From an uncultured Bdellovibrionales bacterium (lineage in GTDB: Bacteria > Patescibacteriota > Minisyncoccia > Moranbacterales > UBA1568), in NCBI GenBank assembly GCA_964404075.1, contig CAYOIM010000003.1, positions 1 through 37,704 of the forward strand: DNA of 37,704 bases, given 5' to 3'. Shown piece by piece: positions 1-5,193 of this stretch (position 1 is the stretch's first letter; each line of letters opens with the position of its first letter). A model generated the notes under the pieces. It saw only the letters and a list, made by a program, of their open reading frames with translations. It was not told the origin of the DNA and did no database searches. The position numbers were made by a program, and so were the translations under genes.

Positions 1-3
1 ATG

Positions 4-293
4 CTCCGACGACAGGATTCGAACCTGTGACCAAGTGATTACACGCAATCCCAGTGTTTCCAAAGGGCGTGGACTATATCTTCACCATTTCTCTTTTCAG
101 AGAAGAAGGTGCTTCGGTATCTAGTCTCTACGGCGCCCCCCGTGCTCATCACGGAGGTTCCCACGGTATTAGCATATCCACCAAATGAATGGACTTAGCT
201 TTCACCGTTATCCCGAAAAGTTCATCCTGATGTTTCCATCAAGAGCTGCATTTATGGCTACAGTCACCTGCTCTACCGCTGAGCTACGTCGGA
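4..293 (-). tRNA. tRNA-Asn (anticodon GUU) interrupted by a 218-nt intron in the anticodon loop
   Basis: The minus-strand 5' exon (293..260) reads TCCGACG-TA-GCTC-AGCGGTA-GAGC-A-GGTGA-CTGT. The 3' exon (41..4) reads TAA-TCACT-TGGTC-ACAGG-TTCGAAT-CCTGT-CGTCGGA-G. The 7-bp acceptor stem pairs perfectly and the T-loop is canonical. The joined anticodon loop is CTGTTAA, giving GUU. U1-A72 and G73 match bacterial tRNA-Asn. CCA is not encoded. An alternative junction would give UGU (Thr), but it fits the identity elements less well. Confidence 0.85.
42..259 (-). ncRNA. Group I intron inside tRNA-Asn
   Basis: The minus strand contains GTAGAGACTAGAT and GAAGATATAGTCC, matching the conserved group I R/S (P7) elements (Tetrahymena CAGACUAAA / AAGAUAUAGUC). 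GACTA pairs with TAGTC. Between them is a GAAA-capped hairpin, CACCTTCTTCTCT-GAAA-AGAGAAATGGTG (P8-like). CGGT/ACCG could form P3. The 5' exon ends in U, which can form a U.G pair with GCAG (249..246) as P1. The last intron base is G (pos 42). Confidence 0.8.
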
Positions 294-393
294 ATATTCA
301 CTTTTCAATGAAATCACCAGAAAGGAGCGTTTCGGATGACTCAACTATTATACGAAAATTGAAGGAAAAGGCAAGCTAACAGCCTGAATCTGC

Positions 394-1050
394 TTATTTC
401 AGGAATTTCTTTGCAGACGGACAAATATCCTTCAGGACACATTCCCCGCACTTCGGACTCCTCGAGACGCAGATGGCACGACCGTGGGTGATGAGATATT
501 CATTGATCCGAAGGTAATCCTTCGCCGGAAAGAGTCTCATGAGATCCACGGACATCTTCTCTGGCGTCTTGGCACCCGACCAACCGAGCCGTCCCGCAAG
601 CCGGAAGACATGGGTATCGACCGGTAGCCCGACATTCTTTCCGAATGCTTTGGCGAGGACGATATACGCCGTCTTGTGCGAGACACCCGGGAGGAGCAGG
701 AGGCTTTCGAGTCGGTCCGGGACGACACCGCCGAATTGTTCGGAGAGAATCTTCCCGATTCCCTTCAAATTCTTTGATTTATTCCTATAGAATCCGCAGG
801 AGAAAATTTCCTTTTCGAGTGTCGATACTTTCGCAATCGCATAGTCTTTCGCGGTTTTGTATTTCCGGAACAAAGTCTTCGTCATTTTGTTCACGCGCTC
901 ATCCGTACACTGTGCAGAGAGCATCGTCCCCACCACCAATTCCAAAGGGTTCGACCATTCGACGAATGGCCCTACGACAGGGTACGCCTTTTTCAATCGT
1001 CTGAAGGACTCCCTCACACGCTCCTTTTTTTCTTCGATGGATTCTTTCAT
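394..1050 (-). CDS. nth: Endonuclease III (DNA glycosylase/AP lyase)
   Basis: 218 aa. It has a helix-hairpin-helix region (LLLLPGVSHKTAYIVL) and a C-terminal 4Fe-4S ligand pattern C-x6-C-x2-C-x5-C (CVSRSPKCGECVLKDIC). Confidence 0.9.
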   Translation of the reverse strand: MKESIEEKKERVRESFRRLKKAYPVVGPFVEWSNPLELVVGTMLSAQCTDERVNKMTKTLFRKYKTAKDYAIAKVSTLEKEIFSCGFYRNKSKNLKGIGKILSEQFGGVVPDRLESLLLLPGVSHKTAYIVLAKAFGKNVGLPVDTHVFRLAGRLGWSGAKTPEKMSVDLMRLFPAKDYLRINEYLITHGRAICVSRSPKCGECVLKDICPSAKKFLK

Positions 1051-1105
1051 AGGAAGAGTATCCTACCATATAAAACGAAAACTCCCGGAAGCTGGGGGCT
1101 TTTAT

Positions 1106-1582
1106 TTATGAAGCCAGTCTTTTCAATGCTTCAAGAGCGTAGCTTTTTATCGTTTCTTCTACATCGGTTACCGCCATCACTTCTTCCCTGGTCATCCATC
1201 GACACTCTGTTTTTTCATGATTCTCCGGCTGGACAATGGTGTCAGTTTTGGCCGTCGCAAAGTATACGAGAATCAAATGCTTGTGATTTTCACTCGCATC
1301 ATGGATATTCATGAATACCGGCGGGATGAGCTGCTTCAACCGCCCTGTTCCTTTTTCGGCCAAGATTTTATTCCCATCGTAGAGTTCGATATCCAAACCT
1401 ACTTCTTCCTTTGCCTCGCGAACCGCCGCTTCCTCCGGTGTCTCATTCAATTCAATATGTCCCCCTGGAGCGATCCATCGTTTTACCTTGTCATGCAGAC
1501 GGATAAGCACCTTGTCCTTATGCACGATAAATACCTCAGCAATAAAATCAATCTGCCCCGGCTCCGTATGGATATGCGCCAT
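1106..1582 (-). CDS. NUDIX hydrolase
   Basis: 158 aa with a Nudix box, GGHIELNETPEEAAVREAKEEVGL (Gx5Ex7REUxEExGU). Confidence 0.85.
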   Translation of the reverse strand: MAHIHTEPGQIDFIAEVFIVHKDKVLIRLHDKVKRWIAPGGHIELNETPEEAAVREAKEEVGLDIELYDGNKILAEKGTGRLKQLIPPVFMNIHDASENHKHLILVYFATAKTDTIVQPENHEKTECRWMTREEVMAVTDVEETIKSYALEALKRLAS

Positions 1583-1722
1583 AATCCTTCCAAAAAATTA
1601 TTACCCTTCCATCCTATCACACCAAACAAAAACCACACCGTGAAGCGCGATTTCTGTCTTTATTTCTTCTTTGTCTAGTATCTAATATCCAATGTCTACT
1701 CCCATTTTTCTCTCAAATTTTT

Positions 1723-1756
1723 CAGCGGACGCACCGCTCGAAAAGCGGAGCGACCG
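1723..1756. repeat. GC-rich quasi-palindromic intergenic element, copy A1
   Basis: The sequence is cagcggacgcaccgctcgaaaagcggagcgaccg, flanked by aattttt / ttaaaaaatt. It is near-identical to 32461..32496. It lies directly 3' of the rpoD stop on the minus strand. Confidence 0.7.
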
Positions 1757-1764
1757 TTAAAAAA

Positions 1765-3264
1765 TTAGTAATCCTTCAGCTTCTTGATATCTTCGTGCTC
1801 GCGGATCTTGTCAAGGGCTTTCGCCTCGATCTGACGGATGCGTTCCCTCGTCACCCCGAATTCCTGTCCGACTTCTTCGAGGGTATGCGTCACCCCGTCT
1901 TCAAGTCCGAAACGGATTTTCAGGATCTTCTGTTCTCGAGGTGACAGCTCATTCAGGATTTCATCGATGTGTTCTTTCAGGAGCTTCCTCGAGGCGGACT
2001 GATTCGGCATGACGGTCTCCGTATCCTCGATGAAGTCCCCGAGCACCGAGTCATCATCCGAATCGCCGACGGAAGTTTCAAGTGATACAGTCTCCTGAGA
2101 AATTTTCTGGATGTGACGAATCTTGTCGACTTCGAGTCCCATCTCCGCGGCGATCTCTTCCGGAAGTGGTTCGCGCCCGAGCTCCTGTACGAGGCGGCGC
2201 GTGATCTGCGCGTACTTATTGATCGTCTCAACCATGTGTACCGGAATACGAATCGTACGGGACTGATCGGCGAGTGCCCGGGTGATCGCCTGCCGGATCC
2301 ACCAGGTCGCATAGGTCGAGAATTTGTATCCTTTCCGATAATCGAATTTCTCCACTGCACGAAAAAGACCGATATTCCCTTCTTGAATGAGATCGAGGAG
2401 CGAGAGATTATGCGATCGCCCCACATACTTCTTCGCGATCGATACGACGAGACGGAGGTTCGCCTCGGTCAATTTCTGTTTCGCGGCGAGGTCGCCCTTC
2501 TCGATCAACTTCGCATACTTCACTTCTTCCTCACCCTTCAACAATGCGACGCGACCGATTTCTTTGAGATACATCTGCACGAGATCCGAAGTATCACTGC
2601 TCTCCGAGAGTGCCTGGAGTTCTGCCCGCTCCCGCGCCTTCGCCTTCGCCGGGGTCTCGGGTTTCGCGGCGGTCGGGAGGACTTCGATCTTCAGCATTTC
2701 TTCGGAACCGGTGATTCTGATTCCGGAAGTCTCTAATCGCTCGTACAGGTTCTCCAAATGTTCCAGATCCTGCTCGACATCCGGAAGGATATGGATGATC
2801 TCATCTTCCGTCACGAATCCCCTCTGCTTGCCACGAGCGATCAATTCGTCGAAAGCATTCTGCTTCACCAGATCCCTCGCCTCCTTCACCGCGAGCGCCT
2901 TCCCCGTGAGAGAGACGGATTTTTTTGCGACAACCTTCTTGGTCACCGGTTTCTTGGGTGCGGCTTTCGCAGATTTCCTTCCGCTAGTAAGCGGACTCGC
3001 TTTTTTCGTTACCGCCTTCGGAGACTTCTTCGATTTTGGCGCGGTCTTCTTCGTCGCCTTTTTTCCGCCAGTAAGCAGACCTGTCTTCTTCGTAACCCTC
3101 TTCACCGCCTTTTTCGAAGCAGGCTTTTTTGAAGGCACCGATTTCTTCTTCGTTTGCTTTTTCATCATTTTCTTTTTTCCTCCTGATTGAACGATACCCT
3201 TCATATTCCTCTTCGCAATTATCCGCCTCATCGCCTTCTTTTTATTCTTCTCAGCTGTTGTCAT
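1765..3264 (-). CDS. rpoD: RNA polymerase sigma-70 factor with a lysine-rich N-terminal extension
   Basis: Regions 2-4 are recognisable ([40 protein letters not shown]; [20 protein letters not shown]). The start is uncertain: the ORF opens at 3330 (TTG), and I chose the ATG at 3264 ([10 protein letters not shown]). Confidence 0.9.
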
Positions 3265-3363
3265 AATCACATAATAATACCGCGACTTACATAGTATCCA
3301 TAAAAGAGAGCACCCCGTCATCCCCTCCAAAAAGAGAAAAGCGGTTCCGAATCATGCTCTCCG

Positions 3364-5178
3364 CTACGACCGAGAAAGCTCGGTAAATTCTTCCATCAAC
3401 GATTTCTGCAAAGGCTTGTCACCGGCTTTCCTGGCCGATTCCAAGGCACGACTGATGGATGCCAGCCGTTCCTTGCGGATCTCTCCATCGAGAGATTTCA
3501 CATATTGTCCGAGCAGATCCTTTGCGGCCGCCGACCGTTCTTCGGGAGCCCCGGACAAAACGGCGGAAAGTATTTCTTCGGCCTGGAAAGAAAGCTTGGT
3601 TCCAAGAGCCTTGAGCGAGACATCGCCGATCAAGACCAGAGGATCCACTCCTTCCTTCGCTCCCTGCAAAATGTATTGGGAAATCGGGTGCCTCGAGAGA
3701 AACTCTACCACTTTTTCCTCGGAAAGACAAGCGAAATCATTCCGGGCGCCCGTTTCGATGAGGGCAAGTCCGATGATATTTTCACGAAGTATCTCCGCCC
3801 GATTGCCGAAAGAGGCTTCGACCGATCCTGCAGACCGGATACTAGTCGGCGATGACCCGTCTTTCCGGCGCTCTCGAAACTCCTTTTCCAAGGTCGGAGC
3901 GAGCGCCTTCTCATCCATTCCGATACGGAAGGCGAGTCGTGACAGGAAATGCATCCGTTCGATGGCATTCTCCGCATGAGCGAGGATCGGAAGATAGAAT
4001 TCCGCGATCGCTCGCTTTCCTTCTGGCAACTGTGCATCATGCTTCGTCATGGCCTGCTCGAGAAAATATTCGAGCGCCGGTACGGCATGCGTCACGGCCT
4101 CACGGAGCACCTGCGGATTTTCCCTCGCCGCATCCGCGGCATCCTTGCCGGAAGTAATCGCGACAATCGAGACGACGATTTCTTTTCCGAGGGCAAGCTC
4201 GGTACTCCGCCTCGCCGCCGTCTGCCCCGCGCCATCCATATCAAAGAAAAAATATATCCTATTCCCGTATCGCTTGAGGATATCGAGCTGATCCGTCGTC
4301 AGTGCCGTCCCCGATACGGCGACGACATTCTCGATGCCGGCTTGGTAGGTCGCGATCACATCCATATTCCCTTCCACCACGACCGTCGCACCCGATTTCT
4401 TGATCGCATGCTTCGCCTGTGCGAGACCATAGAGCGCCTTGCTCTTCCGATACACCGCGGTCTCCGGCGTATTCACATACTTCGCCTGCGACTCGTCGCC
4501 GCCGGGTACGACACGCGCCGAAAACCCGATGACTCGTCCCATCGCATCCATCACCGGAAATGTAATTCGATTCCGAAATCGGTCATACCAATCCCGCCCA
4601 GTATCTTTTTTGATGGTGAGTCCAGCCGCTTCGATTTCTTCCGGGCGATATCCACGAGAGACGAGAAAATCAGAGAGATGTCGCCACCCTTCCGGTGCAT
4701 ATCCGAGTCGGAACAATTTAATGCTCTCATCGGAGAGTCCGCGATCACGCAGGTACGAGAGTATCTTCGTCTTCCCCGCCCCATCCCACAATTGTTTTTC
4801 ATAGAACTTCGTCGCAAGCTCGAGGATCTCTGTGAGGCGTGGTTTGCTCTCCGCAATCTGTTCCCCGTTCGGCGTCGCGACATATTCCCTACGATACGGT
4901 GCGAGGTCCACGCCAGCCCGTTCCGCGAGGAGGGAGAGTGCCTCCTTGAAATCGAGACTCTCCATCTCCATGAGGAAGGTGAAGACATCGCCCCCTTTAT
5001 TGCAACCGAAACAGTGGAACGATTGCCGCTCCTCGCTCACCATGAAAGACGGGGATTTCTCATTATGAAAAGGACAGCGCGCCTTCCAATTCATGCCCGC
5101 TTTCTCGAGCTTCACATAGCTCCCGATCACTTCGACGATATTGAGCCGTGATTTCACATCCTCGACCGCTGTATTCAT
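3364..5178 (-). CDS. dnaG: DNA primase
   Basis: It has the zinc-binding motif CPFHNEKSPSFMVSEERQSFHCFGCNKGGD and a TOPRIM region (VVVEGNMDV ... FFFDMDGAG). It sits directly upstream of rpoD, as in the conserved dnaG-rpoD operon. Start is the ATG at 5178, with a TTG alternative at 5184. Confidence 0.93.
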   Translation of the reverse strand: MNTAVEDVKSRLNIVEVIGSYVKLEKAGMNWKARCPFHNEKSPSFMVSEERQSFHCFGCNKGGDVFTFLMEMESLDFKEALSLLAERAGVDLAPYRREYVATPNGEQIAESKPRLTEILELATKFYEKQLWDGAGKTKILSYLRDRGLSDESIKLFRLGYAPEGWRHLSDFLVSRGYRPEEIEAAGLTIKKDTGRDWYDRFRNRITFPVMDAMGRVIGFSARVVPGGDESQAKYVNTPETAVYRKSKALYGLAQAKHAIKKSGATVVVEGNMDVIATYQAGIENVVAVSGTALTTDQLDILKRYGNRIYFFFDMDGAGQTAARRSTELALGKEIVVSIVAITSGKDAADAARENPQVLREAVTHAVPALEYFLEQAMTKHDAQLPEGKRAIAEFYLPILAHAENAIERMHFLSRLAFRIGMDEKALAPTLEKEFRERRKDGSSPTSIRSAGSVEASFGNRAEILRENIIGLALIETGARNDFACLSEEKVVEFLSRHPISQYILQGAKEGVDPLVLIGDVSLKALGTKLSFQAEEILSAVLSGAPEERSAAAKDLLGQYVKSLDGEIRKERLASISRALESARKAGDKPLQKSLMEEFTELSRS

Positions 5179-5193
5179 ACTCAAATCGCATCA

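Follow-up and report, generated by a model that had tools for sequence, protein, structure and literature searches.

Is a transfer RNA (tRNA) gene that is split inside its own anticodon still a working gene? The question is raised by the first positions of contig CAYOIM010000003.1, a stretch of 37,704 nucleotides (nt) that was analysed in full and is referred to below as the window, where the two halves of a tRNA-Asn(GUU) gene lie on either side of a 218-nt insert. With a probability of about 0.85, we consider this locus to be a functional tRNA-Asn(GUU) gene, in the anticodon loop of which a compact group I intron of 218 nt, without open reading frames (ORFs) of note, separates U35 from U36. 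The intron belongs to a large family of the Candidate Phyla Radiation (CPR) and is sporadic in relatives. The intron is real; novelty in kind fails, since the family is widespread in the CPR and has already been reported in preprints.

All parts of the gene are on the minus strand. The 5′ exon (260..293, 34 nt) reads TCCGACGTAGCTCAGCGGTAGAGCAGGTGACTGT and comprises the 5′ strand of the acceptor stem, the D arm, the 5′ strand of the anticodon stem, and loop nucleotides C32, U33, G34, and U35. The 3′ exon (4..41, 38 nt) reads TAATCACTTGGTCACAGGTTCGAATCCTGTCGTCGGAG and comprises U36, A37, and A38, the 3′ strand of the anticodon stem, the variable loop, the T arm, the 3′ strand of the acceptor stem, and discriminator G73; CCA is not encoded at its end. 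The perfect 7-bp acceptor stem (TCCGACG/CGTCGGA, minus strand, window 293..4), the T-loop TTCGAAT, and the joined anticodon loop CTGT|TAA, all described in a first-pass annotation of this DNA, were confirmed, and ARAGORN recognized the joined exons as tRNA-Asn(gtt), in agreement with the identity given there. The joined exons were identical at 73 of 73 positions to the uninterrupted tRNA-Asn(GTT) genes of two Moraniibacteriota metagenome-assembled genomes (MAGs; L204 and L205), and the 5′ exon alone was 100% identical to the matching part of these genes. Identity to the syntenic intron-less tRNA-Asn genes of L001 and L002 was 94.5%. The latter two genes scored 75 bits with the Rfam tRNA model, were assigned to Asn by ARAGORN, and have the anticodon loop CTGTTAA.

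The insert itself (42..259) begins with A at position 259 and ends with the omega G at position 42, so the terminal G was found where it had been expected. Its length of 218 nt and its group I core were confirmed. ORFs lying within the intron encode only 23–44 amino acids (aa) in any frame, in line with the reported absence of a homing-endonuclease ORF; a 64-aa ORF on the plus strand (185–379) overlaps the intron and extends out through the 5′ exon. When searched alone with an E-value threshold, the Rfam group I model (Intron_gpI, RF00028) was aligned to positions 269–50 of the minus strand with 39.5 bits and an E-value of 9.5e-9. The absence of a significant covariance-model match had been named as a result that would refute the intron, and this check was only narrowly passed: the full model (1–253) was aligned at this E-value, with a score below the gathering score of 50. 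Among 15 homologous loci searched with RF00028, four exceeded the gathering score (51.9–56.7 bits), including the tRNA-Asn intron of L153, which is ~77% identical to the window intron and scored 56.7 bits. The intron family straddles the curated cut-off of RF00028, and for this reason pipelines miss these introns. Family members were searched for in species-representative genomes with the core pattern AGAGACTAGA-N20-50-AGATATAGTC, which matched at least 120 genomes, almost all of them Patescibacteria/CPR. The omega G was present in 84 of 84 GUN-type (Asp/Asn/Tyr) family members in the chosen register, among the matches listed; since the search required it, the family-wide terminal G is not an independent test.

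The secondary structure from P1 to P9.0 was drawn by hand, with all pairs being Watson–Crick or G·U, and 65 pairs were scored for covariation in a MAFFT alignment of 46 family members. In total, 90.1% of the alignment cells were paired, compared to 35–43% when the 3′ partners were slid by one to three columns. Compensatory changes were found in 40 of the 65 pairs, and none of 500 shuffles reached any of these measures. The minimum free energy fold (−75 kcal/mol, z −3.95) was not equalled by any of 200 shuffled sequences and recovered P2–P6, P8, and P9 on its own.

P1 (246..263) is formed by exon nucleotides C32-U33-G34-U35 together with intron A1 (263–259), which pair with the guide U10-G11-C12-A13-G14 (250–246). 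The U·G pair at the 5′ splice site, previously suggested as a possibility, is present as U35·G11 in 46 of 46 homologues, and covariation was seen in the first intron pair of P1 (A-U in 27, G-C in 8, and C-G in 6 of the 46). P2 (225..244) is an 8-bp hairpin with a GAAA tetraloop and compensatory changes in all eight pairs. P3 (218–213 with 117–112) encloses P4 (208–203 with 168–163), P5 (199–172), and P6/P6a (162–132), the whole domain occupying 112..218. P3, P4, and the base of P5 were 100% paired in the 46 sequences, with compensatory changes in five of six P3 pairs. P5 carries GCUAAG...UAUGC, a motif resembling the 11-nt receptor; each half of CUAAG...UAUG occurred in 24 of the 46 sequences. 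P7 (128–122 with 76–71), the guanosine-binding helix, consists of G, a bulged A, and GACUA paired with UAGUCC and forms a pseudoknot with P3 (71..128). The elements GTAGAGACTAGA and AAGATATAGTCC, from which P7 had been predicted, are both present in the intron, and P7 (GACUA/UAGUC with the bulged A) lies inside them. P7 was invariant in the homologues, but the search pattern fixes it, and its invariance is therefore uninformative either way. J6/7 is GUA and J8/7 is AAGAUA. P8 (111–83), enclosed by P7, has the GAAA cap reported earlier; its outer helix was 100% paired in the 46 homologues, with three of four pairs compensatory. P9 (67–50), also with a GAAA loop, was 96% paired, with compensatory changes in four of five pairs. 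P9.0 (70–68 with 45–43) directly precedes the omega G and covaries (C-G in 14, U-A in 11 sequences); its pairing amounted to only 58% in the MAFFT alignment, in which a one-column slip occurs at the 3′ end. L2 and L9 are both GAAA, and GAAA was retained in L9 of at least 90% of the homologues. The conserved group I helices P3–P9, the P3/P7 pseudoknot, and the P7 bulge are all present. Introns of the IC3 type are compact, with a single P2, neither P2.1 nor a P5abc extension, and tetraloop-receptor contacts of L2 with P8 and of L9 with P5; the location in the anticodon loop, the compact size, and the helix inventory fit this type.

The position of the splice sites had been singled out as worth confirming. 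The intron ends in GUG, so that two registers leave a U before the 5′ site and a G before the 3′ site. With a two-base shift of an intron of the same length, U33 precedes the 5′ splice site, the loop reads CU|UGUAA, and the gene would encode tRNA-Thr(UGU). This ambiguity is common to 60 of the 84 GUN-type family members among the matches listed, and the seed alignment of K. P. Williams (bioRxiv 10.1101/2020.01.27.920355) has an entry of the same intron family named Pgr210.Thr.2Ug. At the locus studied here, a tRNA-Thr gene is nevertheless highly improbable and effectively already refuted. The syntenic intron-less orthologues L001 and L002 read CTGTTAA, and the identity of 73/73 to real uninterrupted genes is obtained only in the Asn register. 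For the tRNA body, identity amounts to 95% with tRNA-Asn and to 75% with the best of 20 tRNA-Thr(UGU) genes, a comparison which is informative within the window's own clade and uses two Asn references. In P1, the G of the guide stands opposite U35 and not U33, and it is in this Asn register that the next pair covaries. Those family members that do not end in GUG (4 Asn, 11 Asp, and 9 Tyr among the matches listed) allow the 35/36 register only. Finally, covariation links the −3 G to C/U191 in P9.0 (CACG...CGUG vs. CAUG...CAUG). The GUG ending is explained by this pairing of the −3 G, and a second splice site is not needed. The split between positions 35 and 36 was thus correctly placed: the Asn register fits the orthologues, the uninterrupted genes, and the P1 guide.

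The same two-base shift produces equally 'legal' tRNA-Ala(UGC), tRNA-Thr(UGU), and tRNA-Ser(UGA) genes at the other loci with GUG-ending introns (60 of 84 Asp/Asn/Tyr-type loci among the matches listed; e.g., L082, L153, and L108). Judging from the alignment, the GUG ending looks like a by-product of the covariation between the −3 G and P9.0 that can mislead automatic callers. Pgr210.Thr.2Ug, in which the U·G pair is at the second U of CUGU, may itself be a mis-registered Asn.4Ug intron.

An interrupted gene at the very end of a contig could also be an assembly chimera, in which two tRNA-Asn halves were joined across unrelated sequence. Only 3 nt separate the tRNA from the end of the window, and Logan contigs are interrupted at the exon borders, since the exon words are common to many organisms. 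However, single contigs span exon, intron, and exon with 100% identity (window 2–294, 8–289, 10–330, and 12–289), the intron-bearing form was found with 100% identity in six independent DNA runs of three studies (X1–X3, X5, X6, and X8), and dozens of independent genomes have the same architecture. A chimera is already refuted by these data, and its probability is next to nil. The contig end 3 nt past the tRNA (window 1–3) and the breaks at exon borders in all runs fit branching of the assembly graph at exon words common to co-occurring intron-bearing and intron-less species. In DNA runs X5–X8, positions 12–289 were covered with 100% identity to the window, and the upstream flank (298–330) was not covered at 97% identity; another strain seems to carry an identical intron-bearing gene beside a diverged flank.

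Detection of ligated exons in RNA had been proposed as a check of splicing. In metatranscriptome runs X24 and X25, a 59-nt contig joined window position 41 to position 260, skipping exactly 218 nt, with exons 100% identical to those of the window. The depth of this junction was 38.7 in X24 and 84.2 in X25, and a strain variant containing the intron was present beside it at depths of 11.6 and 15.8, respectively. In DNA runs X1–X4, only the intron form was detected. The exact junction is present in metatranscriptomes, but it also occurs in DNA metagenomes: runs X6 and X8 contained the same 41|260 junction at depths of 8.7 and 12.4. Given these DNA junctions and the existence of intron-less genes with identical exons in other Moraniibacteriota (L204 and L205), the RNA junction is not assignable to this gene, and we withdrew it as evidence for splicing in situ.

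Both the junctions in DNA and the identical intron-less genes weigh against a functional, spliced gene, as do several other points. RF00028 gave no match in the window at its gathering score (50), no P10 pairing with the 3′ exon was evident by inspection, and the count of tRNA-Asn genes is limited to 37.7 kb of the genome. Splicing of this gene is something we infer. The same points, i.e., the sub-threshold Rfam score, the missing direct proof of splicing, and the lack of an obvious P10, along with the fact that intron-less tRNA-Asn genes are common in relatives, would agree with an intron that is a decayed, non-splicing remnant in a tRNA pseudogene, the work being done by a second tRNA-Asn gene elsewhere. 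We consider such decay unlikely. None of the nine helices is disrupted and no pair of the core is broken, the core motifs do not deviate from the consensus of the family, and the exons are identical to those of functional genes. To our knowledge, single tRNA genes are usual in CPR genomes, which also counts against a second gene. A strain variant found in X23–X25 differs from the window intron by seven substitutions and three small insertions; when mapped manually on the structure, six of the seven substitutions were located in loops or kept the pair (C-G to U·G, U·G to C-G, and A-U to G·U), and the insertions were in L5, so the differences preserve the structure. The gene is located at the orthologous rpoD-linked tRNA-Asn locus, and the block CTTGCCTTTT...TTTTCGTATAAT, which contains a promoter-like site, is largely conserved, with several substitutions, at the intron-less orthologous loci L001 and L002. 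The intact core, the covariation, the orthologous locus with its largely conserved promoter block, and the structure-keeping variant together support an active intron, as far as sequence comparison can indicate.

For a functional gene of this kind, the following course of events may be proposed. The pre-tRNA would be transcribed from the putative promoter (347..374, minus strand), TTGCCT and TATAAT with a 16-nt spacer, which matches the consensus at 10 of 12 positions in a consensus scan and lies ~53 nt upstream of tRNA position 1. The intron would fold into P1–P9, as is evident from covariation, and the internal guide 5′-UGCAG would pair with C32-U33-G34-U35 and intron A1, placing U35 in the U·G wobble. 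Exogenous guanosine bound at P7 would then cleave after U35. The terminal G218, positioned by P9.0, would enter the same P7 site, after which the 3′-hydroxyl of U35 would attack after G218, ligating the exons and restoring the loop CUGUUAA. The steps of cleavage, G218 entry, and ligation follow established group I chemistry. To yield the mature tRNA, RNase P processing, trimming at the 3′ end, and addition of CCA would follow.

The host tRNAs of the family were determined with a strict exon search, in which the anticodon stem had to have 5 bp without mismatch and the loop 7 nt, with U33 and a purine at position 37. This search replaced exhaustive joining of splice sites followed by ARAGORN, which returned many spurious tRNAs with long 'variable arms'. 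A further host, tRNA-His, proved to be an ARAGORN artefact, and no His host was left after the strict search. Among the matches listed, 89 loci were resolved: 46 in tRNA-Asp(GUC), 19 in tRNA-Tyr(GUA), 18 in tRNA-Asn(GUU), three in tRNA-Met(CAU), two in tRNA-Leu(UAA), and one doubtful. The Asp, Tyr, and Asn cases were all split after U35 (35/36). With the strict exon search, no host tRNA was found for 31 of the 120 loci L081–L200 among the matches listed, e.g., L112 (Lachnospiraceae), L181 (Planctomycetia), and L189 (Saprospiraceae); the contig may end there, the stem may contain a mismatch, or the host gene may not be a tRNA but, e.g., a ribosomal RNA (rRNA) or transfer-messenger RNA. The core pattern was also found in introns of tRNA-Met(CAU) after U33 (L090, L132, and L196) and of tRNA-Leu(UAA) at 34/35 (L109 and L192). 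Matches in an Omnitrophota MAG and in Bdellovibrio-like MAGs indicate that the pattern is not strictly confined to the CPR.

On a neighbour-joining tree, the introns clustered by host tRNA, with 13 inferred host changes compared to a mean of 33 and a minimum of 25 in shuffled data, and the window intron grouped with the Asn introns of L164 and L144. Asp(GUC), Tyr(GUA), and Asn(GUU) tRNAs share C32 followed by U33-G34-U35. The intron is absent in L001 and L002 (rpoD 99% identical) and in L201, L202, L204, and L205 (rpoD ~80–82%), none was detected in L203, and it is present in L153 and L164 (rpoD ~80%). By these comparisons, its occurrence among close relatives of the window is sporadic. Among species whose tRNA-Asn exons are 100% identical, some have the intron and others do not, and the nearest relatives are without it while more distant ones have it, which suggests ongoing gain or loss. 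It is conceivable, though we hold it only tentatively and think it rather doubtful, that one endonuclease-less lineage colonized the site U35|N36 of Asp, Asn, and Tyr tRNAs in the CPR, its 5-nt guide recognizing C32-U33-G34-U35, e.g., by reverse splicing, with gain and loss still going on. If so, many 'Thr.2Ug/Ala/Ser' calls would be mis-registered Asn/Asp/Tyr 4Ug introns.

The upstream neighbour of the tRNA gene is nth (394..1050, minus strand), which encodes Endonuclease III with the Pfam domains HhH-GPD and EndIII_4Fe-2S and served as a synteny anchor. A terminator-like hairpin after nth (372–386, minus strand) overlaps the −35 hexamer of the promoter-like site of the tRNA. The row of genes upstream of tRNA-Asn is dnaG-rpoD-NUDIX-nth, and the window further contains genes for guaA, a UvrD/PcrA helicase, PNPase, and gyrA. 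In L001 and L002, the orthologous nth products are 85% and 84% identical, respectively, and that of rpoD 99% identical at the aa level, and an uninterrupted tRNA-Asn(GTT) gene lies behind nth. The nearest genomes are Candidatus Moraniibacteriota MAGs, and the public runs with this sequence are wastewater and activated-sludge metagenomes; the host is a Moraniibacteriota-like Patescibacteria/CPR bacterium from wastewater or activated sludge. The row dnaG-rpoD-(NUDIX-nth)-tRNA-Asn (window 1–5184), or at least rpoD-tRNA-Asn, recurs in distant CPR lineages (L153, L144, L128, and L135; rpoD 58–80%), and the linkage of rpoD and tRNA-Asn is recurrent in many CPR loci with an Asn intron. This recurrence makes the tRNA-Asn locus look orthologous across much of the phylum. 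Several 'MAG TPA_asm' records labelled as uncultured Bdellovibrionales, Gammaproteobacteria, or Saccharibacteria (L002, L088, L118, L144, L150, L164, L167, and others) have rpoD, nth, and introns that group with Moraniibacteriota or Parcubacteria. Judging by this grouping, their organism labels look unreliable.

The main value of the locus is practical, as a warning for annotation. In its default mode, ARAGORN found no tRNA in the whole 37.7-kb window; with the intron option, it misplaced the 3′ border and wrongly called tRNA-His with a 199-nt intron. Rfam at the gathering score reported nothing as well. Since neither the intron nor the tRNA is detected by default tools, such a CPR genome would be scored as lacking tRNA-Asn, which feeds false claims of missing tRNAs or of incompleteness for reduced genomes. 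The window also adds a well-supported member to a family that, by analogy, would make splicing a requirement, in many Patescibacteria, for three of the four tRNAs with a GUN anticodon. Its presence and absence among near relatives provide material for studying the spread of ORF-less group I introns.

The first-pass annotation knew of no tRNA-Asn example, and its suggestion that none had been described turned out to be wrong. The preprint of Williams (bioRxiv 10.1101/2020.01.27.920355) extends the four classical classes of bacterial tRNA introns to 21, and among the entries of its seed alignment are Pam37.Asn.4Ug, with an intron at precisely the site found here, Wba81.Asp.4Ug, and Mba143.Tyr.4Ug, where '4' denotes the site after the fourth loop nucleotide, i.e., 35/36. 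The window intron has the features of the Asn.4Ug class: the Asn host, insertion behind the fourth nucleotide of the loop, U at −1, and omega G. Compared to these Asn, Asp, and Tyr examples, it is a different sequence from a different genome. In the alignment, Mba143.Tyr.4Ug has long identical stretches in common with it, including GAUAACGGUGAAAGCUAA, AAUACCGUGGGAACC, GCGCCGUAGAGACUAGAUACC, and AAGAUAUAGUCCA, and by this likeness plainly belongs to the same family. Pam37.Asn.4Ug carries additional P2.1-like and P7.1/7.2-like insertions there, unlike the window intron. By its title, a preprint of Nakagawa et al. (2025; cited in PMC12641178) also covers tRNA group I introns in Patescibacteria, and Lui et al. 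(2021; PMC8172020) reported that group I introns made the tRNAs of closed CPR genomes hard to detect. In our literature search, no paper was found that ties these introns to the GUN or queuosine tRNA set.

Group I introns are also known from 16S and 23S rRNA genes of the CPR (Brown et al., 2015; Tsurumaki et al., 2024, as cited in PMC11809585 and PMC8172020). According to these citations, they are similar to the window intron in phylum, in ribozyme class, and in interrupting RNA genes that standard annotation tools miss or mis-size. They differ in their rRNA host and in their frequent LAGLIDADG homing endonuclease genes, whereas the window intron is ORF-less and has a tRNA host.

The tRNA-Leu(UAA) intron of cyanobacteria and plastids shares with the window intron the location in the anticodon loop, U at −1, omega G, and presence/absence polymorphism among relatives. 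It differs in its site (34/35) and, in the Ncf2 and Sel1 rows of the alignment, in its more distant core sequences, and it did not match the CPR core pattern. The tRNA-Leu(UAA) loci which did match this pattern, among the matches listed, were L109 and L192, from Bdellovibrio-like MAGs.

The intron of the Azoarcus pre-tRNA-Ile(CAU), of the IC3 type, is similarly small, ORF-less, and located in the anticodon loop. It is known to self-splice, while for the window intron we infer splicing. Its host is Ile2, and it is inserted behind nucleotide 5 of the loop. The two introns also differ in the sequence of J3/4-P4 (AAAUUCGGCGAAA vs. GAUAACGGUGAAA), and P8 of the Azoarcus intron carries a second 11-nt receptor, whereas that of the window intron contains a 3x2 internal loop and is capped by a GAAA loop of its own. 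In the alignment, the Azoarcus row (Aol6.Ile2.5Ug) shares with the window intron GUAGAGACUAGA in J6/7-P7-J7/3 and AAG.xAUAGUCC in J8/7-P7, and in both introns P2 and P9 end in GAAA tetraloops and P5 carries a receptor of the CCUAAG...UAUGG type. In sequence and predicted fold, the window intron thus appears to resemble the IC3-type introns of other bacterial tRNAs, its likeness to that of Azoarcus being read from the alignment.

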